Assembly (NCBI GenBank): GCA_965602015.1
Contig: OZ271918.1
Coordinates: forward strand, 2,144,001 to 2,208,000
From: Salinispira sp.
GTDB taxonomy: Bacteria; Spirochaetota; Spirochaetia; DSM-27196; Salinispiraceae
Length of the DNA stretch: 64,000 nt
Direction: 5' to 3'
Positions 5,179 to 25,428 of this stretch are shown one piece after another. How positions within the stretch are numbered: position 1 is the first letter of the stretch; each line of letters opens with the position of its first letter. The notes below the pieces were generated by a model. The model saw only the letters and a program-made list of their open reading frames with translations. It was not told the origin of the DNA and did not search any database. The position numbers and the translations under genes were made by a program.

Positions 5179-8100
5179 TCAGGGCTCCTCACCCTTCCGG
5201 TATACAAGGTCGAAATTATTGCTGCCGTATCCGATGGCAGTCTCGCCCCAAGCCGCAGCGCTGAAGCGGACAATTCCCGTACGCTTGTTTTGAATGGTCG
5301 TGGCCAGGGGAACCATTTCGTATTCCCAGTCACCCAAACCGCCATCCTGATAGGCGTATTTCAAGCCGTCGAAGGTACCCACCATAGCATTATTGATGTA
5401 GGAGATATGAGGCGTGGTACCTTCAAGATCAAGATCTATCCAGGTACCGACCGCACCTTCCGAGTCGACGGTTTGCGAATAATCGAATACATAATCGACA
5501 CCGTCCGCATCGGGTGCCGTGATGTACACCAGGTCGCCAGTGCTGGTGCGGTAGAACGCCGCGTGGACAGCTCCGCTGGGATCGATCTTCATGCTGACGT
5601 ATTGTCCGCTGAAGCTGCGGTTGGGGTCGTCGTTTCTGAACACGGTCTGAATAGTCCAGTCGGCATATGCGGTGGGGTTGGTGGTATTGGCATAGGCCAG
5701 CCGCAGAGTTTGATTAAAGATGTCGTAATACATAATAACCGGGTTGCCGAATTCGTCGACATCAACCGCGACGTATTGGCCGGCCAGGGAGGTCGGCGCA
5801 ATGCCGCCCTGCCCGGCTCCGGCATTTCCGCCGTCGAGATTCAGCTGCACCAGTCCGGCGCCGCTTCCGTCGGGCATGAGGGGACCGCCGTCATCATCCC
5901 AGGTCTGGTTTGAGCGACCGTTGGGAATGTAGCCGTACTTCAGGGTTTTTTCATTATTGTCGAAGTAGGCTACGTGGATGTCATTGCCTTCCCTGACTAC
6001 CCGGGGGTTTTGAAACTGGAAGAGGAGATTGTCGTGGCCGAGCCAGTCGACGTAATAGCCGTTGTATCCTCCCAGATCCCCCTCAGCATCGGCGTCTGGG
6101 TTGTAGACCGTCAGGAAGCCCCACTGGGTACCGCCGTTGAAGTAGTTCCCCAGGTAGGCCACCTGGATATTGTCCGCCGCATCGAGGTAGATGTCAGTGA
6201 ACTCCGGCGGGTCGAACTTGTTGTGAATGAGGGTTCTGGCCGCAGTGGTGCCGTAGTAGGCCTGGGAAGTCGCATAATTCACCCATGAGCCGTAGAGGGT
6301 TCCGGTGCTGTCCACATGGAGCGACGGATGCTCGGGGTCATTCGAGTTGGCCAGACTGTCGCCGGTTTCCCAGACAAACAGATACCGGTCGTCAGTCCAG
6401 AGGGTCGAAGCGATACCGTTTCCATCGTCCTCTTTGTTGTAGTCAAGGCTGTTGTCATTAATGTGGTTGATGGCTTCGATTCCATTGACATTTACTCTGA
6501 GTATTCCGGAATGGGTAACACCGCTAAGGCTTACCACGATCCGTCCGCCGTCGGCATCCGCAGAGGTGATGGTGGTACGGTCATCTGCGCTTCCCGCCGC
6601 GTTATACACCCGCACCCATTCATTGGGATCATTGACCGGGTCCGCAGGCACCGCTTTGAGAAGGTTAAAACCGTGTATTTCCACCCCGGCCTCTCCCTGC
6701 TGAACGGGATACCGGCCGTATTTGGTTCGGTTGGTGTTAAACGAACCGGGATTTCGCAGCAGCTGAGAGATGTAGGGAACGATGTCCACCGTTATGGCAT
6801 CGCTGTCGCTGTTCGGAACTCCGTTGGCATCGTATACCGTGAAGCTGACGGTAACGTTTGACTGGGCAATGGACGCGATGCTCGAACTGTCCCATTCAAA
6901 TGCCCAGTTAAGCACGTTTCCGTTTGATTCGGTGAGATAGTTCGCCCCGTCGACGCTAAAGGTCCAATCGGCGGTGTTCAACGCTCCTCCGGCGGCGCTA
7001 TACACATCGAAGGGATTGCCCAGGCCCGTGCCGGGGTCGTAGCCCGGAATTGCGGCTTCTATCCGGTCGATGATCTGATTATCCTCGACTTTTCCGCGAA
7101 TGATGATTCGTCCCGAAACATCCGGGTCGGCGCCGTCGTACTGGCTGTCGCTGCCGTATTCCACATGACCGAGGCGGGTTTGTCCGCTCATGGCGATGTT
7201 CTCGTTATAGTCGCCGACGGCATCCAGGGTTTTTGAAGCGTCATTATTGCTCTCGCTGTACCTGAATCCGAAATCCGCCACGGCGATGCTCGGCGGAGTA
7301 GAATCCACATTGTCCACCGTGAATCCCAGAGTAAGGCTGTCGCTGAGTTCATCGGTGGCGTCGGCGTCGTCGCTGGTGGTGCTGTCGTAGATGGTAATTG
7401 TTATGCTTTGGTCGTTATCCGCCGCCGATTCGGTAAATCCGCTGGTATCTATTTCTATGGTTCCGTCTGTGAGCGTTCCGTTCTGCTCGACAGTATTGTA
7501 GATTACCGAGTAGCGCAGGGTGCCGTTGCCTCCGCTGGCATTGACGCCGATGTACAGGCGGTCGTTGCGGGCGGTAAAGTTGCTGGCCGCATATCCTGCG
7601 CTGATGATACTGTTCTGCTCATCGACTTCCACGGTTCCGCTTCCGTCCAGGTCGGTTCCCAAAACCAGGGAATTGATGGACGGCTTGTTATTGGCGATAA
7701 ACGCCGCAGTGCTGTCCTCGGCCATATTTCCCGCCAGGTCCACGGCCCGGTAACGGAGGGTTACCGCCCCGTCGCTAACCAGGGTTGAATCAAAGAGGGC
7801 GGACCACTGGTAGGTACCGGCGCTTAAGGCCAGGCGCTCGTCGAAACCGTCGTTGTCCCCCGAGGGCAGGCTGTCGTCGCCCACCGCTCCGCCTTCAAGG
7901 CTGTTGTCGATGACAATCCGGTAGTCGTTGTAGATCGCATTGCTCAGATCATAGACATCTTCAGCAACGAATGCGCCGATGCTGCCCGTGCCGCCCTTGA
8001 GGCGCACCAGCTCTCCGATGCGGTTTTCCATGAACAGTACGATCCGGTCGATTCCCGCCACGGTTCCCGTGTCGCGCACGGTTCCCTGAACCTCAGCAGC

Positions 8101-11100
8101 GGTGCCGAGGATTTCGGTGTCGCCGGTGTAAGTAAGACTCGATGGATCGATGTTATCCACGCTGAAGCTGATGAGATTCTGATTGGTGAAGGGGCTTGGA
8201 CTGGTGGTGTCCTCGGCGGTGATTTTTACGCTCATGGACCCCGCCCCATTGGGGTACAGGCCGGCGGCTTCGGTGTTGATGGGTACGCCGATGCGGTATG
8301 AGCCGGGGAATGCCGGGTCGTAATCCGGATCTGCAGTGCCCAGGAGCTCAACGGTAATGCCGAGGCCCGCGGCTGCCGGAGTTTCGAGACCGGTGACGTT
8401 CGCCCCGCCGACGGGCAGCAGTCCGCCGGGATTGTCGAAAATTATGGTGTTGTTCAAAAGCGGTCCCTCGTTGGAGTAGATAATCCGGTCGATATCCGTT
8501 TCATCCCGCACCAGGCCGCTGAGGCCGTAGGTTCCGCTTACCGTGTCGCCGCTGATCAGATTGATATCGGCAAACTGAGGAAAGTCCTTGTTAAACGTGA
8601 TGCTTACTTCTTCTTCAGCACCGAAAATACCGTCTCCGGGGGTTTCCTTGTAATCCTTCGCCCGGACCTTAAAGGTGATGGTCCTGGTGGATCCGACGCT
8701 GGGATCGAATTCCCCGGATTCATTGAGGTTGATATTCCAGCTGTTAGTGCCGTTAACCTGATACCAGTTCACTCCCCCGTCGGTCTCATCGAGGGTGCCT
8801 TCTGCCCACACATCGTCGGTGTATATGCCGTTGTTGTTGGCGTCGATGGCGATTTGAATTTTTTCTACGAACTGGCTGTCGAAGGCCGAACCGAATACCC
8901 GCACAAAGCCCCCGACCGTTGAACCGTCTCCCGGCGACAGGATGGTCACTTCGGGCCGGTCCCGTTTCGGGTCAATCTGGAGCTGATAGCTGGTCAGATA
9001 ACTGATATTTCCGTCGCCGCTGACGCCAGCGCTGTCTTCAGCCCGGACATAGAAGGTGAAATCCCACAGGTCGGTCCAGGTTTCCCCGGCGTCCACGTTG
9101 CCGTCACCGTCCAGGTCTCCGGTGTTGGTGGAGAAGGTGCTGTTTGCGTAGTCATTTATGTTCAGGAAACTGTAGTTCCAGCTCGTTGTTCCGCCGGTAT
9201 TTATCCAGGTGCTGGCTTCCAGGGTCGCCGCATTGGTCGGATCGATCTGTTTTCCCAGTCCGATGGAAACGCTAGCCACACCTGCGCCGCCGGCATTGTC
9301 GCTGGTAGTTCCGCCGATGGTCAGGGGTCCGAAAACCGCCGAACCGTTGGCCGGAGAGGTCACGTTAATGGTCGGAGCGCTCTTGTCTACCACAAACGAG
9401 CGGCTGCTTACACGGGTCTTACCCACCCCGTCGGTTGCCCGTACATAGAGGGTGTGGGGACCGTCTGCCAGCGCAGCCTGGGCTACCGAGAAGCTCCAGT
9501 TGTCGTATGGAGCGCCGATAGAAACAGCCCCGCTGTCGAGATCGGAGTCGTCGAACTTGTATTCCAAAAGCACTATTCCGGTCTCATCGGCGCTGGTACC
9601 TGCAAAATCGAAGCTGTCATCCGACGACCAGGTGATGTTCGCCACAGGCGAAGTTATGTCCAGGTCGGGAAGCTGGGTGTCCAGCAGAAAGTCGATTTCT
9701 CCGGTATCGGTTCGTGAAAAATCGTTTACGCCGTAGTCGGCGCCGTTGTTATCAACCGTGTCGACGGCGCGGATGCGAATCCCCCGCAGACCGTTTTCAT
9801 TACTGCTCAGTGTCACAGAAAAATCGATGCTGGTGTCTCCATAGCTGCCGCTGACCAGATTAACGGTCTGGGCTGCAATGCTGTTGTCCACAGCATATGC
9901 ATCGATGAGTATGGCTGAGACGCCGTCGTCATCGGTGACCGTACCGGTTATGGTGCTGCTGGTAATGCTCGATGAACCGTCGAAGGCGATATCATCCAAC
10001 ATAACCTGAGGACGGTCCTCACTCTGATCAATGCGGAAGACCAGATCGTTGCCGCCGGCAGTGCTGTACACATTTCCCGCCTGGTCGGTTACCAGGGCGC
10101 GCAGGGTCAGCTCATAGAGTCCGCCGCCAAGATCATTGGCATAGTTCAAGAGGGTCGTATTGCGGGTATCAAAAGCCGAAATAGTCCAATTGGAAATCCC
10201 GCCGAGAACTCCCGTCGGCAGAACCTCCTCACTGTTGAAGTTATTCACGTCCACTATGCGGAAATCGAGATTTGCAACGCCATAATTATCCGAAGTGGTG
10301 CCGCTGATGCTTATGGTGTTGTTGCGGGTCGAACCGGGCGTGGGTGACGTGAAGGCCAGGCCCGGGGCCGTTTTGTCCACATAGAGCTGAACGCTGTCTT
10401 CCCGGGTATTCCCGCCGCTGTCTTCCGAGCGGAGAATTATCTGGTACAATCCGCCGCCGCTTGAGGTGTCCACGGTAAAATTGATGGTCCTCGGGCTGTC
10501 TCCGGCGATTCCGCTTATCTGGACCCCTGAATCAGTCAGGTTGGTGAACGGCTGAATCTGTGTGCCGTCCCGAAGTATTCTCACCGCCACATTTTCAACG
10601 CCGTTGCTGTCGGTGGCCGTTGCGCTCACGGCAAAATCGCCGCTTTGATAACTAAAAGCCGCCGGCAAGAGTCCGGTGAGATCCGGAGCTCCGGTGTCCT
10701 GGGTGAAGCTCACACTGGCGACATCGGAAAGCACCGGAGCCGCGTTAACATCTTCACCGCGGATTTCGATCGCCTTATTTCCGTCGGTCGCGCTGTTAAT
10801 TGTGAAGCTGAAGCTCCGGTCGGTAATCGAACCGCTGGTACTGACATTGGTCCAGGCGGTCCATGTGCTGCCGCCGTCGCTGGAGAACCGGTACTGCACA
10901 GAGTCGGGGTCAAGACCTACACCGTCATCGTCGCTGATAGAGCCGGAAACATTGATGGTTTGGCTTGCGATGGTATCACCTGCGCCCGGAGCGCTTATGC
11001 TGACCACCGGCTTGTCCGAATCCTGATCAATGCGGATTACGTAGTCCTGGCTCGCCGAATTGCCGTTCCTGTCGCCGGAACGCACACGAACTGTCAGGTC

Positions 11101-14100
11101 AAGACCGTCTGCAATGAGAGTCGTATCAATGCCGTTAATGGTAAATGCCGACCCCAGGGCCAGGGGTGTCCAGCTCGAGCCGCCGTCCAGGCTGTACTCC
11201 AGGCTGGCGAGATTCCCCACCCCGTTGTCTTCACTGACCGTGCCGCTTATGCTCATGACTCCATTGCCGTATACCCTGCCCAAATCCGCAGGAAAGTCGT
11301 CAATAAAGGGCACGGGATTTCCAAACGCGATAACCGGACCAACCCGGTCGAGACTCACGTCTTTCTCGAGAGAAACGGTTTTTCCCGCGGCATCCACCGC
11401 CGTAAAACGGAATGTGTACACACCGTCGAGATCGCCGCCTACCAGAGTCCGGTTGTACGTCCAGGTTCCCGGTCCGGCATTCCAGACTGCGTTAACCGGC
11501 GCCCCGTATGCCCCGGCGCCGTAGCGCTCTTCCACGGTGATTTCGCCAATCGCATTGCTGTCTGATGCGGTACCGCTAAAAGAGAAGTCTGCATTTTCAT
11601 ACGCCGTTGAAACGCCTCCGGTAATGGCGATCAACGGGTTGTTCTGGTCTATTCCATAATTCACCGTGGTCATGGGAGATTCGTTGCCCGCGTTGTCCAC
11701 AGCGACGACAAAAATACTTCGCTCCCCTTCACCGGTGATGGAGAAACTTCCGTTCCAGCTTCCGCTTCCACTGGCTATATTCCAGCTGGGGTCGCTGAGG
11801 TCTGCCGGAGGAGTGGCGCCGCGGGTATCTACCTGGTAGTACACCCGGCTTATTCCCGCAGAGCCGACATCCGAAGCGGTCCCCGAGGCCGAAAAGGATG
11901 CGCCTGAGAGCCACTGGTCCACCGTGGGCGAGCTGACCACCGGTGCGTTCGGCGCGCTTTGGTCCACCACAACCGTCTTAAGAATTGAGGTCTGCCGGCC
12001 AACCACGTCTCTGATGACTATTTCGTACACGTAGGAACCCTGACCGGCGCTGATGTCCGTATCCACATTCCACGTCCGTGCGGTATCGCCAAGGGAACCG
12101 TTGAGGGTAACCGTCAGGGGAACCGCTGCTCCGCCGTCTTTCGACTGGCGGACTATGACGGTATTTACCCCATTTGTGTCGTTCGCCGTGCCCGAGATGG
12201 TAAAATCTGCCGCCTTGTAGAGGATGGTGTCGCCCCAATCGGCGCCGGCCTCCTCCCTGAGATTGGAAACGAATGGAGCGGCCTGATCGACAACGAACAC
12301 CCTATTGGCGAAGTCGTCGCTTGTATCGCCGTTATCGTTGGCCACAGTGATGTTTCCCGCCCTGTCTTGAGCCCGCACCCATATGCGATGGGCGCCTTCG
12401 GACAGACCGGTGTCGGCCCCGGTGCCGTCGGTATCCAGGTCCAGGGAAATATTCCAGTTGCCGGCGGTGCCGGAAACGTTGACCCAGCTGTCGTTGGCGT
12501 CGTTGCCGTCGTCGGTGAAATCCAGCGAGTACTGTACGGTTCCCCCCGAGGGAGCGGCAATGCCGCTACCCGCGTCAGATGCGGTACCTAGAATTGCGGC
12601 CAGATTGCCCGACAGATAATCGCCGGGGTCATTTATCGTTACGGATTCCGGCGCTTGTTCGTCTATTTCCACGGCGCGGATGAGCTCGGTGCTTCGCCCC
12701 GCCACATCGGTGGCGGTGATGGTGAAGACCCAGCTGCCGTCCTCGCTGCCGTCCCCCGGCAGGGTTTTTGTATATGAGTAGGCGCCAGGAGAGGCGTTGG
12801 TGTAGACCGTTCCCTGATCCGCGCCGTCCGTGGTTGCGGTAATCACCACATCATTAAATCCGTTGGTGTCATTGGCGGTACCTGAGATTACCAGATCGCT
12901 GTTGGTAGCGGCCACTGCCGTCGTCTCGGTGAGGCTGGGCGGAGCGGTATCAAAATAAATATTTACGGCTTTTTCAGAGGCCGGCCCGTAGGGATTGATT
13001 CCGTCGGAGGCCCGGACATACAGGGTCTTCGCCCCTTCGCCGCCCGGTGAGAAGTCGATGTTTGCGGCGCTCCAGTTCAGTCCGCTCAATGGTATCGCCG
13101 TGTAGTTGGTACCGTCCAGACTGTACTCGAGAGATACCACGCCGCGCCCCGAGTTATCGGTTACCTGACCGCGGATGGTGTAATTTGCGCCGTCGATGAA
13201 CTCGTTTTCCACGGGACTGATGACGGTCAGGTCCGGATCTGCGGTATCAATGATAATATTCCGGATGAGCTCTCTCGTCCGTCCCACTTCATCAGTGGCG
13301 GTGATGGTCACTTCATAGGCGCCGTCGCCGCCGGCAGTGGTAAGGGTCGTCGCCCAGGAACCGTCGTCGGTGGTGTCGTTAAGCAGTTGAACCGCAGGCC
13401 CGGCGTCTTTGGAATATTCCACTACTACTGAGGCAAGGGCATTGCTGTCTGCGGCCGATCCGCCGAGGTTCACCGTGGTATTTCTGTAGACCACCGAACT
13501 GCCGGGAATACCCGAGCTGGTTTCGCTCAAGCTGGGAGCGTTCTGATCAATATCAAACATTACGCTGGCCGCAGAAGCGAAGGGCGTGAGATTTCCCGCC
13601 GAATCCTCGGCAATGACGTGGAGGTACCATCGGCCTTCTGCCCGACCTGTGTCGGCGGCGGGTCCGTCAGTATCGAAGTCGTCGGTAAAACTCCAGTTGC
13701 CGCTGGTAGCCACCGGGACGTAATCGCCGATGTTCGTGGACGCCGCGGGATTTTGGCTCACTTCATACAGTATGCGGCCGATGCCCGAAGCCGCATCGCT
13801 TGCGGTTCCGGCAAAAGGGAATGCCGAGCCGCCAAGGGCGCTTAGTCCGGTCTGTCCGGCTGCGGGATTGCTTATTGTGACTGAAGCAGGCGCAGTAGTA
13901 TCAACGAGCACGGTTCTGGTTTCCGAACCCTGGCCTCCCACGCTGTCGGTCATTTCTATGGTAAAAACATAGGTTCCTTCTCCGGCGGAAAAATCCGTGC
14001 TTGCCGTCCAGCTTCGCGCCGGATCTCCGGGGCTCCCCATAAGGGTAATGGCCACAGGAGTTTGGGGTCCGCCGTCCTTCGATTGGCTGATTACCACGGA

Positions 14101-16632
14101 TTCCACGCCATTGGCGTCATTGACGTCCCCGGCGAATCCAAAATCCGTGCGTTTTGCCAGGGTGAGAGTCCCCCAAGGGGCTCCCAACTCTTCAGTGAGA
14201 CCCGAAAGGCTCGGTGGTCCCAGGTCGAGAGTAAAGAGATACGGGCCGACCGGCAGACTCGAAACGCCGTAAATATCGTCAACCCGAAGCTCGATTGAAT
14301 AGATCTTTTGATCGGTGATGCCGGTATCGTGACGGAAACTCACCTGACCACCGTCGGATACCGGGGGACCGGTGAGGGCCTGCCACACCCCGGTTTCGCC
14401 GGAATCGTCGGTGTCGCCGTCATTATTATTATCTTGATTAATGCGCACTTCCAAGGTGCTCACATCCACCGAATCGTCGTCGCGGATTTCTCCGAAAATG
14501 TCTTCTCCCAGGGAAAGGGCGTTTACCGGAACGCTGCCATCGGTAATCAGGTTGGTGAAGCTAAACACCGGAAAATCGGAACTTTGGTCGATGGAAAAAT
14601 GCCTGACTACAGGGTCGCTGATATTTTGAGCCGCATCGCGGCTGTAATATACCAGAGTGTAATCGCCTTCGGTGTCCGGAAGATTGAGGCGGGAATCGCT
14701 TTCGGTATCCACGGCGGTGACCTGCCAGTTCACACTGGAGCCGCCGTCGGGGTTGAACCAGCCGGCTGCCGCCAGGTCGCCGGCATCAAACGATGCCGGT
14801 GGATCGGTTTCCGGGTCGCCGATTGCAAAGCTTCCTGAGAGTATTTTGAGGTAGTTGTTTTCCAGGGGATTTGATCCGTCGGTGGCAAGGCCGTTGAAGT
14901 TCACCGTACCATTAAGCACCGCCCCTTCGGACGGAACGGTTATGCTCGCCGTGGGCTGTTGGGTATCGCCGACAAACTGGAATATGGTAAACCCGTAGGC
15001 GTCGGTAATTCCGCTGCGTATCCTGAAACTCTGGGTGCCGTCAGCCAAAACAAAATCGGTTCCGGGAATAAGCTCAATGCCGTACAGTGCGTCGTCGGTC
15101 AGTGGATTGCCGTCGTAATCGAGCTGAAGCAGGCCGTTAACTCCGTCGCTCGTGGCGCTCAGGTCGAATTGCCTGTCGGCGACGCCGTCATCGTCGTCGT
15201 CCCAGTCGTTATCCGCATCGAGGTCGAGGTCTATGCTGCCGCCTTTGAGATTCGTCAGGTGAAGCTGCAGGCGGACCGAAGTACCGGGACCTATGAACGA
15301 TCCCTGTGACGGCGAGACAATTTCCACGCTCGGAATGCCCTCGGGTATGGAGAAGGTGACGTTCGCGCTGGCATCCGAGCTCGCGCTGACCCCGTTGAGA
15401 TCAACCGCAGTGAGCCTGAGGTAGTATTGCTTTCCCGTTTCCAGGGTCGATGCGGTGTACGACCATTGGTTGCCGTTCACCTGGATGCCGTAGGACACCC
15501 TCTTTGCGGTTCCGCCGGATCCGTTGCTGGGGAGCAGAACCCGGTCATCCGGGCTCCCGTCGGGATTGCCGTCGGCATCGAGGCCGTCGTTGTAGCTGAA
15601 CACCCCCTGGTACTCAAATACTTCGAGAAAGAGGTAGGGGTCGATATCCCAGTCGCTTGAGAAAAAACCGTCGTCGTCGAACACGTTTCCGATAAATACC
15701 TGCTGGGCGGCGGTAAAAGAGGCGGGTTCTCCCTCATTGGGGCTGATAAAATCGAATTGGGGAAGATCGGAATTCGGATCGACCCGGATAATCAGGGGAT
15801 TCTGATTAAGACTGTGGCGTATGCTGGCCAGGCTCACGCTGAGCCTTGAAGAAATATCTGCAGCGCCTAGGTCAGCGTCGTTTACATCGACGATGCTCGG
15901 CACGTCCGCAGGATTGACCGCATTACTCAGGAGATCGAAAAAATGGTAGAAATGGCTGTTCACATTGCCCGAGGGGTCGGCAGCGCTGACCACCAGCCGG
16001 TAATCCGCAACCGGAAGCCCGGACACATCGAGGCTGGCGGACCAGCTTGTCCGTCCTGTTGCCAGAATGTTGCTAAGACTGCCGTCCCCTGAGGGGTCTT
16101 GTCCTGACGCCGTGAGAAGCGACACCCGAACGCTTTGAACCCTGGTTGTATCCAGGGCTTCACCGGAAATAAACAGGGTATTATTGAACTCGCTGCTGAG
16201 ATAATTGCTCGGTGAGTTCACCAGTACCGTCGGGGGATTATTGTCGACGGTAAGCAGGACTCTAAGGTTTGTTCTCTTGGCGGAGGAATCGGTGGCGCTG
16301 ATGGTGAATTCATGGTCTCCATCGCTCAAGGTGGTGGTGTTTATCCAGGCGGACCAGGCATCCCCGTCAAGTTCGGCGTTGACAGTCCTGCCGTTCACTT
16401 CCACCTGCACCGAACTTACCGAGGTATCGTCTTCGATTACCCCGGCAAGGCGCAGCTGACCGCCCACATAGTCGCCGTTTCGATGACTCTCGAGAACGAC
16501 CGTTGGAGCGTTGATATCTACTGCTTCGCCCAATCCGGGTTGGAAAATATCGCAGGTGCTCAGTCCCAGAATGAGGATAAACGTCGCAGCCGCCTTGAAT
16601 CCGATGCGTGTATTATTTTTACTTGTACCCAT
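5179..16632 (-). CDS. Giant (3817 aa) acidic Ig-like repeat lipoprotein with a C-terminal propeller-like domain; putative surface adhesin or filament
   Basis: ATG 16632 with GGGGGAGAG RBS; spirochaetal lipobox LGLST-C at Cys27. About 30 repeats (estimated) of D..aP.i.i.sP..g....G.a.D..gv..v...W......dG.y...v.A.D.aGN. EF-hand loops. The C-terminal ~390 aa has repeated beta-blade-like motifs. Confidence 0.9.
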   Translation of the reverse strand: MGTSKNNTRIGFKAAATFILILGLSTCDIFQPGLGEAVDINAPTVVLESHRNGDYVGGQLRLAGVIEDDTSVSSVQVEVNGRTVNAELDGDAWSAWINTTTLSDGDHEFTISATDSSAKRTNLRVLLTVDNNPPTVLVNSPSNYLSSEFNNTLFISGEALDTTRVQSVRVSLLTASGQDPSGDGSLSNILATGRTSWSASLDVSGLPVADYRLVVSAADPSGNVNSHFYHFFDLLSNAVNPADVPSIVDVNDADLGAADISSRLSVSLASIRHSLNQNPLIIRVDPNSDLPQFDFISPNEGEPASFTAAQQVFIGNVFDDDGFFSSDWDIDPYLFLEVFEYQGVFSYNDGLDADGNPDGSPDDRVLLPSNGSGGTAKRVSYGIQVNGNQWSYTASTLETGKQYYLRLTAVDLNGVSASSDASANVTFSIPEGIPSVEIVSPSQGSFIGPGTSVRLQLHLTNLKGGSIDLDLDADNDWDDDDDGVADRQFDLSATSDGVNGLLQLDYDGNPLTDDALYGIELIPGTDFVLADGTQSFRIRSGITDAYGFTIFQFVGDTQQPTASITVPSEGAVLNGTVNFNGLATDGSNPLENNYLKILSGSFAIGDPETDPPASFDAGDLAAAGWFNPDGGSSVNWQVTAVDTESDSRLNLPDTEGDYTLVYYSRDAAQNISDPVVRHFSIDQSSDFPVFSFTNLITDGSVPVNALSLGEDIFGEIRDDDSVDVSTLEVRINQDNNNDGDTDDSGETGVWQALTGPPVSDGGQVSFRHDTGITDQKIYSIELRVDDIYGVSSLPVGPYLFTLDLGPPSLSGLTEELGAPWGTLTLAKRTDFGFAGDVNDANGVESVVISQSKDGGPQTPVAITLMGSPGDPARSWTASTDFSAGEGTYVFTIEMTDSVGGQGSETRTVLVDTTAPASVTISNPAAGQTGLSALGGSAFPFAGTASDAASGIGRILYEVSQNPAASTNIGDYVPVATSGNWSFTDDFDTDGPAADTGRAEGRWYLHVIAEDSAGNLTPFASAASVMFDIDQNAPSLSETSSGIPGSSVVYRNTTVNLGGSAADSNALASVVVEYSKDAGPAVQLLNDTTDDGSWATTLTTAGGDGAYEVTITATDEVGRTRELIRNIIIDTADPDLTVISPVENEFIDGANYTIRGQVTDNSGRGVVSLEYSLDGTNYTAIPLSGLNWSAANIDFSPGGEGAKTLYVRASDGINPYGPASEKAVNIYFDTAPPSLTETTAVAATNSDLVISGTANDTNGFNDVVITATTDGADQGTVYTNASPGAYSYTKTLPGDGSEDGSWVFTITATDVAGRSTELIRAVEIDEQAPESVTINDPGDYLSGNLAAILGTASDAGSGIAAPSGGTVQYSLDFTDDGNDANDSWVNVSGTAGNWNISLDLDTDGTGADTGLSEGAHRIWVRAQDRAGNITVANDNGDTSDDFANRVFVVDQAAPFVSNLREEAGADWGDTILYKAADFTISGTANDTNGVNTVIVRQSKDGGAAVPLTVTLNGSLGDTARTWNVDTDISAGQGSYVYEIVIRDVVGRQTSILKTVVVDQSAPNAPVVSSPTVDQWLSGASFSASGTASDVGSAGISRVYYQVDTRGATPPADLSDPSWNIASGSGSWNGSFSITGEGERSIFVVAVDNAGNESPMTTVNYGIDQNNPLIAITGGVSTAYENADFSFSGTASDSNAIGEITVEERYGAGAYGAPVNAVWNAGPGTWTYNRTLVGGDLDGVYTFRFTAVDAAGKTVSLEKDVSLDRVGPVIAFGNPVPFIDDFPADLGRVYGNGVMSISGTVSEDNGVGNLASLEYSLDGGSSWTPLALGSAFTINGIDTTLIADGLDLTVRVRSGDRNGNSASQDYVIRIDQDSDKPVVSISAPGAGDTIASQTINVSGSISDDDGVGLDPDSVQYRFSSDGGSTWTAWTNVSTSGSITDRSFSFTINSATDGNKAIEIRGEDVNAAPVLSDVASVSFTQDTGAPDLTGLLPAAFSYQSGDFAVSATATDSNGVENVAVRILRDGTQIQPFTNLTDSGVQISGIAGDSPRTINFTVDTSSGGGLYQIILRSEDSGGNTREDSVQLYVDKTAPGLAFTSPTPGSTRNNTISISGTTSDNYGVANLDFRIVDVNNFNSEEVLPTGVLGGISNWTISAFDTRNTTLLNYANDLGGGLYELTLRALVTDQAGNVYSTAGGNDLVFRIDQSEDRPQVMLDDIAFDGSSSITSSTITGTVTDDDGVSAILIDAYAVDNSIAAQTVNLVSGSYGDTSIDFSVTLSSNENGLRGIRIRAVDTVDNNGADYGVNDFSRTDTGEIDFLLDTQLPDLDITSPVANITWSSDDSFDFAGTSADETGIVLLEYKFDDSDLDSGAVSIGAPYDNWSFSVAQAALADGPHTLYVRATDGVGKTRVSSRSFVVDKSAPTINVTSPANGSAVFGPLTIGGTTSDNAGGAGVASVSIGLGKQIDPTNAATLEASTWINTGGTTSWNYSFLNINDYANSTFSTNTGDLDGDGNVDAGETWTDLWDFTFYVRAEDSAGVSGDGNISYLTSYQLQIDPKRDRPEVTILSPGDGSTVGGFVRVFGSAFDSQFVEKIQIAIDANNNGIYTDDVWAEGTLDETDGGVNWYQVNGTNSWNINLNESGEFDPSVGSTRTITFKVRAKDYKETPGDGIFGAEEEVSITFNKDFPQFADINLISGDTVSGTYGLSGLVRDETDIDRIIYSNEGPLLNNTIIFDNPGGLLPVGGANVTGLETPAAAGLGITVELLGTADPDYDPAFPGSYRIGVPINTEAAGLYPNGAGSMSVKITAEDTTSPSPFTNQNLISFSVDNIDPSSLTYTGDTEILGTAAEVQGTVRDTGTVAGIDRIVLFMENRIGELVRLKGGTGSIGAFVAEDVYDLSNAIYNDYRIVIDNSLEGGAVGDDSLPSGDNDGFDERLALSAGTYQWSALFDSTLVSDGAVTLRYRAVDLAGNMAEDSTAAFIANNKPSINSLVLGTDLDGSGTVEVDEQNSIISAGYAASNFTARNDRLYIGVNASGGNGTLRYSVIYNTVEQNGTLTDGTIEIDTSGFTESAADNDQSITITIYDSTTSDDADATDELSDSLTLGFTVDNVDSTPPSIAVADFGFRYSESNNDASKTLDAVGDYNENIAMSGQTRLGHVEYGSDSQYDGADPDVSGRIIIRGKVEDNQIIDRIEAAIPGYDPGTGLGNPFDVYSAAGGALNTADWTFSVDGANYLTESNGNVLNWAFEWDSSSIASIAQSNVTVSFTVYDANGVPNSDSDAITVDIVPYISQLLRNPGSFNTNRTKYGRYPVQQGEAGVEIHGFNLLKAVPADPVNDPNEWVRVYNAAGSADDRTTITSADADGGRIVVSLSGVTHSGILRVNVNGIEAINHINDNSLDYNKEDDGNGIASTLWTDDRYLFVWETGDSLANSNDPEHPSLHVDSTGTLYGSWVNYATSQAYYGTTAARTLIHNKFDPPEFTDIYLDAADNIQVAYLGNYFNGGTQWGFLTVYNPDADAEGDLGGYNGYYVDWLGHDNLLFQFQNPRVVREGNDIHVAYFDNNEKTLKYGYIPNGRSNQTWDDDGGPLMPDGSGAGLVQLNLDGGNAGAGQGGIAPTSLAGQYVAVDVDEFGNPVIMYYDIFNQTLRLAYANTTNPTAYADWTIQTVFRNDDPNRSFSGQYVSMKIDPSGAVHAAFYRTSTGDLVYITAPDADGVDYVFDYSQTVDSEGAVGTWIDLDLEGTTPHISYINNAMVGTFDGLKYAYQDGGLGDWEYEMVPLATTIQNKRTGIVRFSAAAWGETAIGYGSNNFDLVYRKGEEP

Positions 16633-16651
16633 AGTTCTCTCCCCCCTTGAA

Positions 16652-19600
16652 TCAGAAAACATTTATTCTCAACCCAAAGGCCATGCGGTAGGCCAATCCT
16701 CCCTGTACGTCGGAAGAAATGAACCACAGCTGGTTTTCCACATACGCGGCATATGCGTTAAACATGCCGGCATTTTGTAATTCGATTTTTAGTAATTCCA
16801 ATTGAAGAATAATGGCCCCCAGCACCAGTCCCGGCTGGTCGGGCGTCGGGGAGTTTTCCATGGTGAAATACTCAAAGGCCGCGCCGACGGCAATGCTTGA
16901 GGACAGGAAATCCCAATCGGGGCCGAACAGGAATCCGTACGGCAGACTGAACACATTGGCCAGCATCTTGAAACCAAGGACATTACCGTTGAATCTCCCG
17001 GGAGGCGCCTGGCCGAACAGTGCTTGAAGCTTGACGTTGTTGTCAAAAAAGGTAAGTCCGAGGCCGACTTCCCATATGGTCGCTCCGAGTACGTGAGCAT
17101 CGACGTACAGTCCCTGAATGAACTGGGGCACCTCATAGCTGTTTTTGCTCCGGGGACGCAGCATCACGGAAATATCAGAGAGCCCGTTCGAATCCGAGGC
17201 GGTTCCGCTGACCATCAGTTCTCCGTTGAAGGCAAGGCCTTCCTCCGGGTCGAGGATGGTTACAGCAGGATTGGTATCGTCGACGAAGACGTATACCGTA
17301 TCCTGGGCTGTCTCGCCGTTGGCGAATCGGGCCCTTACCAGAATGCTGAGCTGTCCGTCGTTTATTTCCTGTGTCTCGAGCCTGAAGCGCCACTGCTCTT
17401 CGGCGCGGATTTCCCGAAACACCAGGCCGTTGTCCAGGCTGTATTCCAGAGCTTCCAAGGCAAAGGGCCGAAGCTCAGCCCTGCTGAGCTCCCCGTCGCC
17501 GTCGGAATCCGCCTGGGATACCGACAGGTTGTACCCCGCACTCCCCTCAATCCAGGGGCGCTGACTGGCAAACTGCCCGGTGCGAATTGAACTCATCATC
17601 ACCCAGGGACCGGATTCCGCATAATCAACCCGTATCTCACGGGATATGCGCCTCTCGGAGCCCGGAAGATCGATCGCCACTGAAAAGCGCTGATCTCCCT
17701 CGGGAATATCTCCCGATGCTAATTGATGACGAAAGTAGCCCTGTTCATCGGTCTCGCTGACCGCGAAGGCAGAGCCGTTTCGGTAAAGACTGACGGTCTC
17801 GGGAATGCGGTCGCCCTCAACCCGGCCTTCCAGGTAAAAGGGGCCGCGGATTTCCGCGCCGTCCAGGGGATAGAGGATTTTTGGTATTGATTGGTCCACG
17901 CTCACCCGGCGGATAAAGTCCCGGGACACTATGGTCTCGTTGTTCGCATCGTCGTAAACATACAGGGTGAGGTTATACAGTCCTGGGTCCAAAGAGGTAA
18001 TATCGAGCTGCTCTATAACCACCGGTTGCGGGACAAGGCTTCCCTCCAGACCAGTCGACTCCCCGTCTCCTTCCTCATCCAGCAGACTGATCTGATATTG
18101 AACCCGGCTGACCGACAGTTCATCAGACAGGCGCATCTGCAGGGGAAGCTCCTCGGTAAAGTCTTCACCGTCACGGGGCAGACTGACCTCGACAAACGGC
18201 GAGGTATTATCGACTGTGAGAAGGCTGGTTGCCACGGACTCGACACCGTAACCGTCTACGGCGCGGATGAGCACCATGTAGGTTCCGTCCACCAGAACCT
18301 GCGAATCAAGTGCATACACCCACGAACGCTCAGCCTCAGGTACGGAGGGGTCCTCAGGGGGGGTAATTTCAGCGAAATCCTCAACCTCCCCCTCATCGCC
18401 GATATTCTGGGCATCGTCGCCGACGACGGGCAGCAGGCTGGCCTCCTTGTAGCTCAAGCCGTTGTTGAAGGAGACCAGAATCCGTGAGATTCCGTTTTCG
18501 TCGGTGGCCCGACCCTCGAGGGTTATTTCAGCCCTGTTGGTGCTTCCCAACACCGGCGAGGTGAGCTCGGCATCGGGGTTCTGCCGGGAAACCCTGAACG
18601 GGATTCGCACGGGATCGCTGGGAACCCCCTGAAGATCATACGCGGTAATTTCCATCAGGTGCTCATTGTCCGCCAGATCAGCGAAAGGAACCGTAAGCTC
18701 GAAGCTGTTGCCACCGTCGAGATCCCGGGGCTCGCCGCCGTCCAGGCTCCAGCTTATGCGTGATATGCCGTCGTCATCGAGTACGGTTCCGCTGAAAACA
18801 GCGTCACCGGTTATCAGGGCGTTGGGAACCGGCAACTGGACCTGAACCCGCGGTTTATCGGATTCGGGATCGAAGGCTATGGCGGGTCTAATCTCGCCCT
18901 CGTTATTCGCCTCATCGAGCATGCTGAGGACAAAATTATCCGGCAGCTCCGAAAAGGGTGAAAAATCCGCATCGAGCCGTAGGAAGCCGTTATCCGCCTG
19001 GAGGTTTGTTATTCCGTCCCCCAGGGCGAAGCTGCCGACTATATCCCTGGCGTAATTATCGTCGACGCGGAACATGAGACTTATGGCCCCGTTTATGGCC
19101 TCTCCGGCTTCCGGCAGGATGGGGGTAATCACCGGCGCGCTGGCGTCACGGAAAACAAGAACATCCCGGGTGCTGCTGTTGCCCGATGCATCCCGGGCCC
19201 TGAGGGTGATGGTTAGGGGACCGTCGGGACGGGCGCCGATGGGAATACGGCCGCTAAAATTGCCATCGGTCGGCGGACTGATACCGGCGCTTTCCCCGGC
19301 TTCCGGCCGGTCTTGCGCATCGTCGCCGTCGCCATCGTCAGCATCCGTCTCACCTTCTGCAGTCTCGCCCGAAGCATCAAAGGGGAAGGCCGACCAGTTG
19401 CCGTCATCGAGGCGGTACTCGAGAACCGTCTCGTCTTCATCCGTCAAACTGACCCGGATGGGAACTTCCGAGCTGAAGTGCTCTCCGGCCACATCCGAGA
19501 CGATGCGTAGTTCCGGCGGACTCACATCGGCGCTGTACTGAGCAGGTCCGATCCTGTAGACATCTCCGTCGATGGTCGTTGACGTTATGGTTAAAGGACC

Positions 19601-22600
19601 GCTTCGGCTGCCCCCGGTCGAGTTCAGGCTGATATATTGCCCGTCGGTGATGAGCTCAAAACCATCGGGAGCTTGTTCAAAATCTGCGGAAGCCAGTTCT
19701 CTGCCGTTGAGATAGAATTCATGGCGGCCGTCCCGGCTCCCCAGGCCGTACAAGCCGGGGTTGTCGTTTATTGCCCGGTTCTGGGAGTCGGCGACAAGAA
19801 AGAACAGCCCGGATACCCGATGGCTGCGGCCGAACTCGTCGGTTGCGTTGACCGAGTATCTATTGAGGCCGAAGGGCAGATTCGCGACCGGAATGGAAAA
19901 CAGCCCGGCTCCCTCGCCCCGGCTCGTACGGGCGGTGAGGGTCTCGCCGCCGTTGAGACTGTACTCTACTCTGCTGAGGGCAAAGGTACCGGGAACCCGG
20001 AAATTCAGTGACAGGTTTTCCTGACGGACAATTTGAGCTCCGGCGGTTAGGTCGACGGCGCTTATCCGGGGAAATCCGTCCACCACGGTAAATCGGGCGC
20101 TGCCCCTGAGCTGACTGTCCTCCCCGTAGTCCGCCGTGAGCGACAGGGTATAGCTGCCTTCGCCGGGGACTGGAATAAAGCCCTCGGCAACCGGGAAGCC
20201 CTGAATGCTGCCCTCGCTGACTTCCGGTATGCTGTAGCGGATGTTTCGAACCGATTCGACTCCCCGAAATGCCGCGGCGATGTACATTCCGCTGCCCGCC
20301 TGATCGGAGCGAAGCAGCCCGTTGCCGCCGGTTCCCAGGAGTACTGTTACCCCGGGTCGGGGCGGGTTTTCCGGGTCTTCAGTGGGGGCAAAGCTGCGAT
20401 ACACCGAACGGCCCTTGCCGGAGCTGTCCATCGCCCTGATCTGGACCAGTACCGGCGCTCCCTCTGCAGCTGCCACGTCGACCGGGAGATCAAAACTCCA
20501 GCGACCCTCAGCTTCCCTGAGGGTTACCGGGGAAAAGTCTCCCCGGTTTATCCGGTACTCTACTGTTGGCCTTCCGGCATCATCGTCCACGCTCCCGCTG
20601 ATTCGGGGGTTACGGCCGTAGCTTCCCGAGGCGTCGCCCGACAGTTCGAATTCCGGCGGCGCAAAATCAAAAACCAGCGTCGGAAGATCTGCTTCAAATT
20701 CCGTTCCCCGGTCGGTGACGCCGTAAATGCTGAGGTTTTCATACACGCCGGGCTCCGCGCTGCGGATTTCAATGAGCCCGTTCCGCACCTGGGCTTCAAG
20801 AACATCGCTGCCGCGTACTTCAATTGTTTCCAAGGGGTGACCGATAAATCGCAGTTGGTAGGCCTCGCCGCGGGAGAGCTGCGCCCGGGCACCATCAGCC
20901 AGATAGAAACCAAAATCCGACAGGGGACGGCTGAGGTTCCGGCTCCACAAGTAAGCAGTTCGTTCAATCTGCGTTCCCAGGGCGTCCGAGGCGACAATGG
21001 TAACCGGAAGATAGCCGAAGGGGACCCGGGGGCCAAGTTCTATGGCGAAAAGGTACTCCCCTTGCTCATCGCCGCGGGTGAGCCGTACTTCCCGTTGGTC
21101 GACTCCCGGCAAACTCACCGTGACGCTGCCTGATCCGCTTGCGAAAACCACCGATCCGCTGAGTATCCGGTGCCGGTCGCTTCGAAACTCCAGCCCGGGG
21201 CGGTAAGCCAAGGTGCTTCCGTCGCCGGCCGCCATGGATTGGAAACTGATTTGCGGTTCATCTGGAGGAATGAAAAAACTGATTTGCTGTTCATCGCCTT
21301 CGAATCCGTATCGGTCGACGGCCCGGATGCTTATCTGGTGATCGCCGGGTGACAGATCCTCCAGATCGACGGAAAAGCTGCCGTCGGACTCAATGCGTTG
21401 CGGCTCGCCCCGGTTGAGCCGGTACACCACCGCTTCTGGTGCGTCATCATCGCTCACCCAGCCGGCAAGGCGGGGTTCGCTGTCCCCTTCGCTTACGGGA
21501 GATAGCAACTGCACGCCGGGCTTGTCCGCTTCCACATCAAGCGGGCGTCGGAGGCGGAGCTCGGTCTGGTTCCCCGCCACATCGCTGAGAATAAAATCAA
21601 GATCCATCTGGTCCTTCCCGACGAAATCGACCATGATGGACCAAAATGGATTGCCTGGTGGGAGCTGTATCTCCTGGAGCTCGCCGCCGCGGTACGACCA
21701 GAACAGGCTTTCCACGCCGGTATCGTCTGACGCCCGTCCGGCAACCATAAAGTACCCGTTTTCCGGCTCATCTTCCCGGGGGTAGACAATCTCTATGACC
21801 GGCGGGCTGTTATCCACATACAAAAGGAGGGCAGTCTCAGCCGTTGACCCCTGAAGGTCCGTGCTCCGAAACAGGAGAATCTGGGGTCCGTCGAGTAAAT
21901 CCCTGCTGTTTATCGGAATAATAAAGGCTGCCTGACCTTCCCGGGCCGAGCGTGGAATCCGGGCCTCAAGCCACGAATCGCCGCCGTCAAGAGAGTATTC
22001 CATGGCAGCGACCCCGTTCGAGTCGCTGGTATTGCCGGCAATCTGAAATCTTCCGCTGACAAGGTCTCCGTTGCGGTGACTGTCTATTGAAATAAGCGGG
22101 GCGTCGCGGTCGAGAAAAAAGCGCTGACTGACTTCCCTTCCCTGCAATCCGTTGACGTCGGTGGCCCGGGTAGTTACGGTATATTGCCCGTCGGCAAGGG
22201 AATCGGTTTCAATTCGCTGTGACCAAAAATCCGCCCCATCCGCCCTGCGGAAAGCCTCATCTCCTAAGCGAACTTCGACAAACTGAACCTGATCATCATC
22301 ACGGGCGCTTCCGAGTACGGTGAGGTCTCCGGTAATCCGCAAATCCCTTCCGGGATATGTGATGGACGCTACGGGAAGGTCGGATTCCGGATCAATACGA
22401 ATGTCCACCGGCTCTGCTTCAATCACATTGCCGGCTATATCCCGGGCCCTCACGACAACATTATACACACCGGGATCAAGATTGCTGATATCGAATGCTT
22501 TTTGCCATTGATTGATGCCGTCTACCGGGAGAAAAACCTCCAAACCGTCTTCAGCGGCGGACTGAGCTTCTGACGGAGAAACCCCGGCGGTCTCCCCGTC

Positions 22601-22666
22601 CTGGGCGAAAATCGAGAACAACAATAGCAATGTATAAACGAGCGCAAGAAACCTCGGTCTCACCAC
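16652..22666 (-). CDS. 2004-aa Ig-like repeat protein with a Sec signal peptide and a C-terminal outer-membrane beta-barrel-like domain
   Basis: Signal peptide ...LLLFSIFA-QD. About 16-17 Ig-like repeats (estimated) of the same type as the downstream gene. The last ~160 aa are amphipathic strands ending YRMAFGLRINVF with a terminal Phe. Confidence 0.88.
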   Translation of the reverse strand: MVRPRFLALVYTLLLLFSIFAQDGETAGVSPSEAQSAAEDGLEVFLPVDGINQWQKAFDISNLDPGVYNVVVRARDIAGNVIEAEPVDIRIDPESDLPVASITYPGRDLRITGDLTVLGSARDDDQVQFVEVRLGDEAFRRADGADFWSQRIETDSLADGQYTVTTRATDVNGLQGREVSQRFFLDRDAPLISIDSHRNGDLVSGRFQIAGNTSDSNGVAAMEYSLDGGDSWLEARIPRSAREGQAAFIIPINSRDLLDGPQILLFRSTDLQGSTAETALLLYVDNSPPVIEIVYPREDEPENGYFMVAGRASDDTGVESLFWSYRGGELQEIQLPPGNPFWSIMVDFVGKDQMDLDFILSDVAGNQTELRLRRPLDVEADKPGVQLLSPVSEGDSEPRLAGWVSDDDAPEAVVYRLNRGEPQRIESDGSFSVDLEDLSPGDHQISIRAVDRYGFEGDEQQISFFIPPDEPQISFQSMAAGDGSTLAYRPGLEFRSDRHRILSGSVVFASGSGSVTVSLPGVDQREVRLTRGDEQGEYLFAIELGPRVPFGYLPVTIVASDALGTQIERTAYLWSRNLSRPLSDFGFYLADGARAQLSRGEAYQLRFIGHPLETIEVRGSDVLEAQVRNGLIEIRSAEPGVYENLSIYGVTDRGTEFEADLPTLVFDFAPPEFELSGDASGSYGRNPRISGSVDDDAGRPTVEYRINRGDFSPVTLREAEGRWSFDLPVDVAAAEGAPVLVQIRAMDSSGKGRSVYRSFAPTEDPENPPRPGVTVLLGTGGNGLLRSDQAGSGMYIAAAFRGVESVRNIRYSIPEVSEGSIQGFPVAEGFIPVPGEGSYTLSLTADYGEDSQLRGSARFTVVDGFPRISAVDLTAGAQIVRQENLSLNFRVPGTFALSRVEYSLNGGETLTARTSRGEGAGLFSIPVANLPFGLNRYSVNATDEFGRSHRVSGLFFLVADSQNRAINDNPGLYGLGSRDGRHEFYLNGRELASADFEQAPDGFELITDGQYISLNSTGGSRSGPLTITSTTIDGDVYRIGPAQYSADVSPPELRIVSDVAGEHFSSEVPIRVSLTDEDETVLEYRLDDGNWSAFPFDASGETAEGETDADDGDGDDAQDRPEAGESAGISPPTDGNFSGRIPIGARPDGPLTITLRARDASGNSSTRDVLVFRDASAPVITPILPEAGEAINGAISLMFRVDDNYARDIVGSFALGDGITNLQADNGFLRLDADFSPFSELPDNFVLSMLDEANNEGEIRPAIAFDPESDKPRVQVQLPVPNALITGDAVFSGTVLDDDGISRISWSLDGGEPRDLDGGNSFELTVPFADLADNEHLMEITAYDLQGVPSDPVRIPFRVSRQNPDAELTSPVLGSTNRAEITLEGRATDENGISRILVSFNNGLSYKEASLLPVVGDDAQNIGDEGEVEDFAEITPPEDPSVPEAERSWVYALDSQVLVDGTYMVLIRAVDGYGVESVATSLLTVDNTSPFVEVSLPRDGEDFTEELPLQMRLSDELSVSRVQYQISLLDEEGDGESTGLEGSLVPQPVVIEQLDITSLDPGLYNLTLYVYDDANNETIVSRDFIRRVSVDQSIPKILYPLDGAEIRGPFYLEGRVEGDRIPETVSLYRNGSAFAVSETDEQGYFRHQLASGDIPEGDQRFSVAIDLPGSERRISREIRVDYAESGPWVMMSSIRTGQFASQRPWIEGSAGYNLSVSQADSDGDGELSRAELRPFALEALEYSLDNGLVFREIRAEEQWRFRLETQEINDGQLSILVRARFANGETAQDTVYVFVDDTNPAVTILDPEEGLAFNGELMVSGTASDSNGLSDISVMLRPRSKNSYEVPQFIQGLYVDAHVLGATIWEVGLGLTFFDNNVKLQALFGQAPPGRFNGNVLGFKMLANVFSLPYGFLFGPDWDFLSSSIAVGAAFEYFTMENSPTPDQPGLVLGAIILQLELLKIELQNAGMFNAYAAYVENQLWFISSDVQGGLAYRMAFGLRINVF

Positions 22667-24501: not shown

Positions 24502-24544
24502 TAACGGCGTTCTCCCGGACTTTTTTGAATTTCCCTTTTGAATA

Positions 24545-25372: not shown

Positions 25373-25428
25373 ATACCCCGCTTCCGTTATGGAACCTTGG
25401 GGCATACTAGGTTTTTGTCATGCTTCTG

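Follow-up and report, generated by a model that had tools for sequence, protein, structure and literature searches.

How spirochaetes bring very large lipoproteins to the cell surface is an open question, and a route through LptD has been shown for Borrelia only. There, an LptD homologue (BB0838) is reported to carry surface lipoproteins across (bioRxiv 10.1101/2022.12.21.521298), and an LptD orthologue is reported to exist in Treponema pallidum (PMC8407342). Among described envelope proteins, the bipartite barrels of the OmpA/OprF kind, including treponemal eight-stranded outer membrane proteins, combine an eight-stranded fold and a terminal Phe with a periplasmic soluble part (PMC8407342); the barrels described in PMC7171239 are proteins of 22–35 kDa. 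The Leptospira proteins LigA and LigB are spirochaetal lipoproteins with tandem bacterial immunoglobulin (Ig)-like domains and a reported role as surface adhesins (PMC12183334). In this study, a stretch of 64,000 nucleotides from Salinispira sp. (contig OZ271918.1, positions 2,144,001 to 2,208,000; hereafter the window) was analysed. A 17.5-kb gene pair on its minus strand (5179–22666) encodes a protein with Ig-like repeats and a C-terminal barrel (gene 1) and a giant Ig lipoprotein (gene 2). The pair is a widespread, apparently undescribed two-gene envelope system, and its barrel protein has an unusual self-completing architecture. We propose, with a probability of roughly 0.4, that the Ig chain of gene 1 closes into a four-sided ring, a collar that would hold or guide the gene 2 lipoprotein, itself a probable surface adhesin.

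The barrel and the split Ig domain of gene 1

The two-gene layout, the protein lengths, the 19-nt gap, the Sec signal, the lipobox, the common repeats and the propeller-like tip, all given in a preliminary description of the window, agree with sequence, Pfam, BLASTP and fold models. The features of gene 1 are as follows.

16652..22666, minus strand: gene 1, 2004 residues, GTG start; Sec signal, predicted split-Ig twelve-domain core with variable insert, C-terminal eight-stranded barrel
22601..22666, minus strand: Sec signal peptide, about residues 1–22 (judged from sequence alone)
22376..22513, minus strand: second half of an Ig repeat, residues 52–97 (repeat-model positions 49–97; Big_13 profile positions 69–101 of 102)
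21254..22375, minus strand: fixed arm 1, Ig domains 1a, 1b, 1c and 2a, residues 98–471 (alignment and profile comparison)
19517..21253, minus strand: variable insert, residues 472–1050, about 580 residues here (length comparison among relatives)
17270..19516, minus strand: fixed arm 2, Ig domains 2b, 2c, 3a, 3b, 3c, 4a and 4b, residues 1051–1799 (alignment and profile comparison)
17138..17269, minus strand: first half of an Ig repeat, residues 1800–1843, directly before the barrel (repeat-model positions 2–45)
16652..17119, minus strand: eight-stranded barrel of OmpA/OprF fold, residues 1850–2004 (alignment, fold model, structure matches)

The C terminus of gene 1 had been proposed to be a membrane barrel, and the structure prediction suggested for it supports this. 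A model based on an alignment of 30 relatives has eight strands (pLDDT 87.7, pTM 0.79), and its closest structures are OprF, OmpA and NspA (Z 14.7 to OprF, rmsd 3.0, 129 aligned residues). The terminal Phe is kept in 30/30 aligned relatives, hydrophobic faces alternate clearly in six of the eight strands, and the connectors are of fixed length after strands 2 and 4 and variable after strands 3 and 5, with insertions also after strand 7. The segment has the antiparallel amphipathic strands, the fixed turns on one side, the variable loops on the other and the terminal aromatic residue of an OmpA-like eight-stranded barrel. Pfam held no real match for it or for 13 tip and pre-tip stretches of the pair (best E 0.0015). 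The family is compact, with 256 clusters among 1.84 billion representatives, and the barrel match ends at or beside the C terminus in 149 of the best 150. The exception, P0190 (389 residues), has a signal peptide and two tandem barrels without Ig repeats, the sole such case among 127 new proteins. ESM Atlas matches outside the barrel family all scored below 0.9; Ig/PKD proteins of Aminicenantota and Bacteroidota, at 0.79–0.88 by features, are a lead to possible distant Ig-plus-barrel analogues.

In OmpA-type eight-stranded monomers both termini are periplasmic and the lumen is too small for a polypeptide linker. The N terminus, the fixed turns and the terminal Phe of the gene 1 barrel are predicted to face the periplasm, and the Ig chain is predicted to lie there as well, because an eight-stranded barrel has a periplasmic N terminus and no lumen for a linker. 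The barrel would be an anchor. The preliminary description considered an export partner, but the role of export pore is unlikely for an eight-stranded monomer of this kind. A dedicated lipoprotein translocon, Slam- or TpsB-like and perhaps oligomeric, would explain why one conserved barrel gene goes with one to five cargo-like genes sharing an N-terminal motif, an arrangement expected of a transporter with its substrates. However, the barrel models as a closed monomer like OprF and OmpA, and Pfam found in gene 1 no POTRA, TPR or 12–16-stranded pore and no match to ShlB, Slam or autotransporters, so that we give this reading little credence.

The topology bears equally on the idea that both proteins are outward-facing Ig adhesins, with gene 1 as a barrel-anchored rod. 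Such a rod would suit the Big_7/Big_13 matches, the Ca-stabilised adhesin repeats that the Ig repeats of the pair also match, and the Lig proteins, which are reported to show spirochaetal display of Ig chains (PMC12183334). Yet an even-stranded barrel with a terminal Phe places the N terminus inside, and gene 1 lacks a tip domain and is 91–96% identical throughout between two strains. The outward rod of the preliminary description is accordingly given up as very improbable, also in view of the domain arrangement set out below.

To describe this arrangement, a repeat profile of 100 positions was built from gene 1 and gene 2 proteins together. The first repeat of gene 1 consists of the second part of the model only in 151 of 159 gene 1 proteins (six of the eight exceptions are N-terminally truncated and two run into a coiled coil), and the last repeat consists of the first half only in 146 of the 159. 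A further set gave the N-terminal second half in 71 of 73 proteins with a signal-like start and the C-terminal first half in 116 of 127. As controls, the first repeat of the lipoproteins is whole in 55/55, and half-like internal repeats number 28 of 1871; a register artefact was ruled out, since the same model yields whole first repeats in these lipoproteins. The missing half is not supplied by the lipoproteins, whose 788 repeats include 2 of first-half-only and 24 of second-half-only type and whose last repeat is whole in 48 of 50. The split point is an insertion hot spot, with 249 insertions at model positions 40–49 compared with 16–42 per decile outside positions 40–69 (903 repeats). In distant families (L071–L090, e.g. 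L074:4565–10444 and L089:2137–8319), gene 1 carries an extra coiled-coil-like segment of about 100 residues before the N-terminal half-domain.

A complex prediction joining residues 44–192 with residues 1688–2004 gave weak support for pairing of the halves, with a score of 0.49 against 0.00 for the best control. Of the solved pairs 116 of 157 attain this mark, and of the mismatched pairs 2 of 215 do; 18 of these solved pairs and both mismatches score 0.60 or less. At least 97% of contacts recur between runs, and the pLDDT of the partner is 81 compared with 66 when chain 1 is swapped out. Mutual information over 115 gene 1 rows (effective number 103) is 4.04 for the half-to-half block; true intra-domain blocks lie at 3.6–4.2 and unrelated barrel blocks at 3.9–4.1, so the value fits both.

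The eleven whole core domains show a period of three, with a profile score of 104 between same-position domains versus 62 for the others, and ten of the eleven best pairs join same-position domains. Both halves match third-position (c-type) domains best, the second half with 72 compared with at most 49 outside that class, the first half by a narrow preference (55 and 54 versus 51). Third-to-first (c-to-a) junctions have a longer linker, followed in three of four by a DDD motif. Judged by these profiles, the core of gene 1 is made of four three-domain units, twelve domains when the split one is counted. The shortest natural gene 1 proteins (1338–1340 residues) consist of exactly a half, eleven domains and a half. 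Length varies almost solely at residues 471–1051 (13–854 residues in relatives, mostly about 200), and deviations of more than 70 residues affect a core arm in 6/115 rows as against the insert in 45/115.

From the split domain and the 4 x 3 core, a ring of Ig domains closed in the periplasm, or else a polymer joined head to tail, is likelier than a rod. A closed four-cornered ring would predict a fixed count of four units with mutually completing ends. The split-domain data would equally fit pairing between molecules, which would give a continuous head-to-tail chain of Ig domains beneath the outer membrane. A barrel would rivet this filament every twelve or more domains, and the filament would brace the membrane where the giant adhesin pulls on it, or align adhesins. 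A filament would easily accommodate the variable insert, and subunit donor complementation polymerises pili. On the other hand, a polymer would not depend on a count of four, whereas the core is constant in 109/115 rows, and cis pairing would win kinetically if the geometry permits. We regard the filament as unlikely, yet as the chief alternative to the ring.

The gene 2 lipoprotein and its variation

The features of gene 2 and of the gap that separates it from gene 1 are as follows.

16633..16651, minus strand: intergenic gap of 19 nt, holding a GGGGGAG ribosome-binding site
5179..16632, minus strand: gene 2, lipoprotein of 3817 residues, ATG start at 16632
16516..16632, minus strand: putative lipoprotein signal with Cys27 (16552–16554) and family motif GLGxxVD, residues 33–39 (sequence, alignment, profile)
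6784..16509, minus strand: Ig stalk, residues 42–3283, 25 repeats detected, the first whole (repeat profile)
6385..6783, minus strand: small beta-sandwich before the tip, about residues 3284–3416 (fold model)
5182..6384, minus strand: predicted seven-bladed beta-propeller tip, about residues 3417–3817, divergent and exchangeable among relatives (fold model, structure matches)

Judged by spacing alone, the two genes may be co-transcribed; counts from a promoter and terminator scan of the locus were at the chance level of shuffled sequence. Each gene is present in one copy in the 3.87-Mb genome, and both are slightly richer in G+C (gene 1 0.58, gene 2 0.57) than the genome (0.54). A Pfam scan found Big_7/Big_13 repeats in both products, and gene 1 and gene 2 proteins match each other by BLASTP (down to E 1e-13).

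The N terminus of gene 2 reads LGLST, then Cys27, then GLGEAVD. The lipobox Cys is invariant in 11/11 aligned proteins, the rows having been chosen by the Cys motif, and the lipoprotein motif is present in 80 of 88 profile-found proteins; the residue following the Cys is not conserved. A hydrophobic signal followed by an invariant Cys marks the product as a spirochaetal lipoprotein, with lipidation putative. The stalk is built of the same domain types as gene 1, mostly in long runs of the middle type (b), as expected of a straight stalk. Across relatives the N terminus of the lipoprotein is conserved, whereas the stalk varies and the propeller can be exchanged. The model of residues 3281–3817 shows the small sandwich and an all-beta propeller (pLDDT 86, pTM 0.90). 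Photorhabdus PLL/PHL lectins rank first in Foldseek; a second aligner returned the enzyme CylK (Z 30.3), the lectin BP39L (Z 27.5, rmsd 3.3, 309 aligned residues) and integrin heads. Identity to the matched propellers is only 10–12%. A fold shared with lectins shows no function, and sugar binding by the modelled tip is a guess. A search of solved structures returned solely the Ig domain of sulfite oxidase (E 0.01).

In two strains with proteins named T. denticola (loci L041 and L043), gene 1 is 94% identical, with 91–96% along its length, and a neighbouring gene 99%, whereas the adjacent lipoprotein is only 42% identical. The tips are mosaic: two relatives (L044 and L065) are 83–96% identical in the last four windows of the comparison and 46–75% before. 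One distant genome pair reverses the contrast, with lipoproteins at 83–85% and gene 1 at 53%, so hypervariability is not universal. By sequence, the multi-copy, hypervariable lipoprotein probably resembles a surface adhesin. Lipoprotein lengths among relatives range from 1,800 to 5,700 residues; in the distant families L071–L090, the lipoproteins are mostly a tandem pair of two types of about 1,900 residues.

These data bear on the possibility that both proteins are periplasmic and form a strut across the envelope, in which the lipoprotein, seated in a membrane leaflet, meets the ring. The repeat type and junction motifs are common to both proteins, and conservation is seen in the tandem lipoproteins of the more distant families, as the reversed genome pair illustrates. 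But lipoproteins of these lengths are far longer than the periplasm is wide, 42% identity between strains of one species and the tip swaps suit outside exposure, and a conserved residue after the Cys is lacking. A strut is hence improbable, and a surface-exposed lipoprotein with a periplasmic ring at its base is preferred.

Co-occurrence across Spirochaetota

Of 401 Spirochaetota genomes, 71 carry the barrel gene, the same ones by single-protein and by profile search, and with the exception of G056 there is one gene per genome. Gene 1 is duplicated in two genomes (G056, loci L082 and L083; and L115 with L159) and interrupted in three draft loci (L091, L103 and L168). The profile of the lipoprotein N terminus, a model that also catches generic Ig repeats, matched in 112/401 genomes at E 1e-6. 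The 107 matches kept, which start at model position 4 or earlier and are among the best 150 of 445, come from at least 64 genomes; each of these has the barrel, and 29 have 2–5 lipoprotein copies. The tip profile matched in 96/401 genomes, 65 of them at E below 1e-50 and every one of these barrel-positive; the remaining 31 matches are partial, follow after a gap at 8e-25 or weaker, and in 29 cases are from barrel-negative genomes and probably represent other propellers. A strong lipoprotein marker is present in 68 of the 71 barrel-positive genomes and in no barrel-negative one, for profiles trained on barrel-positive genomes and with related genomes that are not independent samples. Of the three genomes that lack a strong marker, G029 has a weak match close by, and the draft genomes G056 and G104 have none. 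From these profile matches, we take the coupling of gene 1 and the lipoprotein across Spirochaetota to be real.

The preliminary description had expected the genes to co-occur as neighbours; the co-occurrence was borne out (68/71), but adjacency is not strict, and often one barrel gene goes with 2–5 lipoprotein genes. In the 71 barrel genomes the lipoprotein gene lies directly downstream in 25, within 20 kb in 10, far away in 5 and on another contig in 24, with 7 not listed. In 80 further loci (the best 80 of 517; 78 titled as spirochaetes), it lies downstream in 13, upstream in 19, divergently in 2 and near in 11, is absent in 4, and 31 loci are too short. The genes often lie side by side, in one order or the other, though they need not. 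This leads to the question whether the proteins are partners at all, or paralogous Ig proteins co-kept by ancestry, regulation or lifestyle. The common repeat ancestry, the many genomes in which the genes lie apart and the relatedness of the genomes would allow the latter. However, both genes are jointly absent within three genera (present in g3 8/9, g9 21/25 and g14 1/3), and adjacency is retained in three orientations, which makes co-retention without physical partnership a rather poor explanation. The small-genome family f6 has the pair in 0/8 genomes.

Among the neighbours in 60 loci there was no third conserved gene and no conserved transporter. Two families of genes, with 8 and 7 members, recur beside lipoprotein loci (L034, L038–L041, L046, L051, L053, L057, L058, L062, L067 and L070); we take one to be a transposase and the other an Rpn-type nuclease, and they may be relevant to tip shuffling. 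At G205:C1:540260–546697 the lipoprotein gene is split by a stop, through assembly error or decay. A barrel-negative genome (G226:C3:97929–100829) holds a 1161-residue frame with weak Ig and propeller profile matches, possibly a smaller relative without a partner. TDE2020 and TDE2022 were considered as members of this pair and rejected, both being reported as YD-repeat genes (PMC3747143).

The genes directly flanking the pair in the window are unrelated to it. Directly upstream on the same strand are GH57 branching-enzyme and DUF4912 genes (22864–25405), whose conservation as neighbours was not seen. An IS66 element adjoins an rRNA operon (41451–43679 and 43862–49457). A TraF_2-like protein of 580 residues, a probable outer membrane barrel, is encoded after a TPR gene and beside three tRNAs (54269–56692), 32 kb from the pair. 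Outside the window, at G000:C1:3740478–3755581, two more giant open frames form a pair (2303 and 2755 residues), the second with a tail that presumably resembles a FlgD-Ig/T9SS-type C-terminal domain.

Proposed assembly and comparison with known systems

As first described, the window lacks T1SS, TpsB, usher and autotransporter genes: a Pfam scan found no secretion-system gene among its 42 proteins. A profile search found no autotransporter in the genome (the positive control was found); in the searches of the genome for Slam, ShlB and PorP the positive control did not register. BamA is present, and TolC-family genes sit elsewhere, away from the pair. In the fold models neither product ends in a T9SS-type C-terminal domain, and both carry N-terminal export signals, unlike giant T1SS adhesins.

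In the proposed assembly, BamA would insert the barrel and leave both ends in the periplasm. The two halves would then fold as one Ig domain that carries the barrel in the loop most tolerant of insertions. The four c-to-a junctions may form the corners, and at about 4 nm per Ig domain the sides would measure about 12 nm. On the periplasmic side of the outer membrane, the ring could bind the conserved first lipoprotein domains, and it may keep the lipoprotein chain export-competent or anchor its base. For crossing the outer membrane, the lipoprotein would use a general LptD-like or BamA-assisted route and not this barrel; the route is an assumption here, since LptD was not detected in this genome with three Pfam models. 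The Borrelia BB0838/LptD route could supply this step, as a general pathway, unlike a dedicated pair (bioRxiv 10.1101/2022.12.21.521298). The propeller may bind glycans or surfaces and be swapped by recombination. The bolder form of this proposal is a single-chain, circularly permuted ring of twelve Ig domains, closed by half-domain complementation with the barrel in its own loop, that serves as a collar for the export or mounting of 200–600 kDa lipid-anchored fibres whose tips are exchangeable. That this would be a new class of envelope machine is more tentative than the collar itself.

Several points weigh against the ring and collar. The pass of the complex prediction is weak, yields no interface and fits ring and polymer alike; resemblance to solved Ig folds also tends to let the two parts of a single domain pass. 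The permutation p of 0.0002 for the period of three is optimistic, as the a/b/c labels were picked after the linker pattern had been seen. A variable insert of 0–850 residues lies within the proposed ring. Only its size and variability suggest that the lipoprotein is surface-exposed, and the genes are unlinked or on separate contigs in 29/71 genomes. Finally, three Pfam models did not detect LptD in the genome although the controls were found; the spirochaete copy is perhaps too distant.

A search of the literature, mostly the main texts of open papers, gave no description of the pair, although T. denticola proteomics tables could list the genes by locus tag. The hypervariable candidate adhesin of the gum bacterium T. 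denticola appears unstudied, and in this genetically workable species the pair supplies a candidate helper that is named and can be deleted. The warning for annotation is that barrel proteins of this kind, labelled 'neuraminidase', 'BNR' or 'Ig-like adhesin', are likely inward-facing. Cryo-tomography of Treponema primitia reportedly shows unexplained surface hooks, bowls and tip fibrils, which are a lead only. If the proposal is true, splitting an Ig domain around a membrane barrel to build a ring or filament would be a new kind of periplasmic organisation.

Gene 1 shares with OmpA and OprF the eight-stranded fold, the terminal Phe and a predicted periplasmic soluble part. Unlike theirs, its barrel is C-terminal and its periplasmic part comprises 1,150–2,250 residues of Ig domains with a split first and last domain. 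The OmpA family proper has a peptidoglycan-binding OmpA_C domain after an N-terminal barrel, whereas Pfam finds none in gene 1 and the barrel is its last domain. RcsF–OmpA is likewise a lipoprotein with a small barrel, but gene 2 encodes a lipoprotein some 30 times the size of RcsF. Compared with LigA and LigB, gene 2 has Big_7/Big_13-type repeats only, is 2–3 times longer, and has a propeller tip and a cognate barrel partner; Lig repeats are of the Big_2 type and lack a propeller tip, which sets gene 2 outside that group, and families lacking the barrel gave no strong lipoprotein match. The tip has the seven-bladed fold of the PLL, PHL and BP39L lectins.

Slam (type XI) and TpsB/TpsA likewise couple one barrel gene to cognate surface proteins with a common N-terminal region, but their pores have 14–16 strands with TPR or POTRA domains, whereas the gene 1 barrel is eight-stranded and bears an Ig array. 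Autotransporters and intimin/invasin also join a Sec signal, an Ig array and a barrel in one chain; theirs has 12 strands and a linker in the lumen, in contrast to 8 strands and an array predicted inside. On such defining features the pair falls outside the autotransporter, two-partner, Slam and T1SS-cargo types, as had been suggested. In the donor-strand complementation of chaperone–usher pili an incomplete Ig fold is completed by another segment, which donates one strand; gene 1 would give half a domain, most likely within one chain, and has no usher or chaperone. The individual folds of the pair are thus known, and what is new is the first and last Ig domain split around a barrel, together with the 4 x 3 periodicity.

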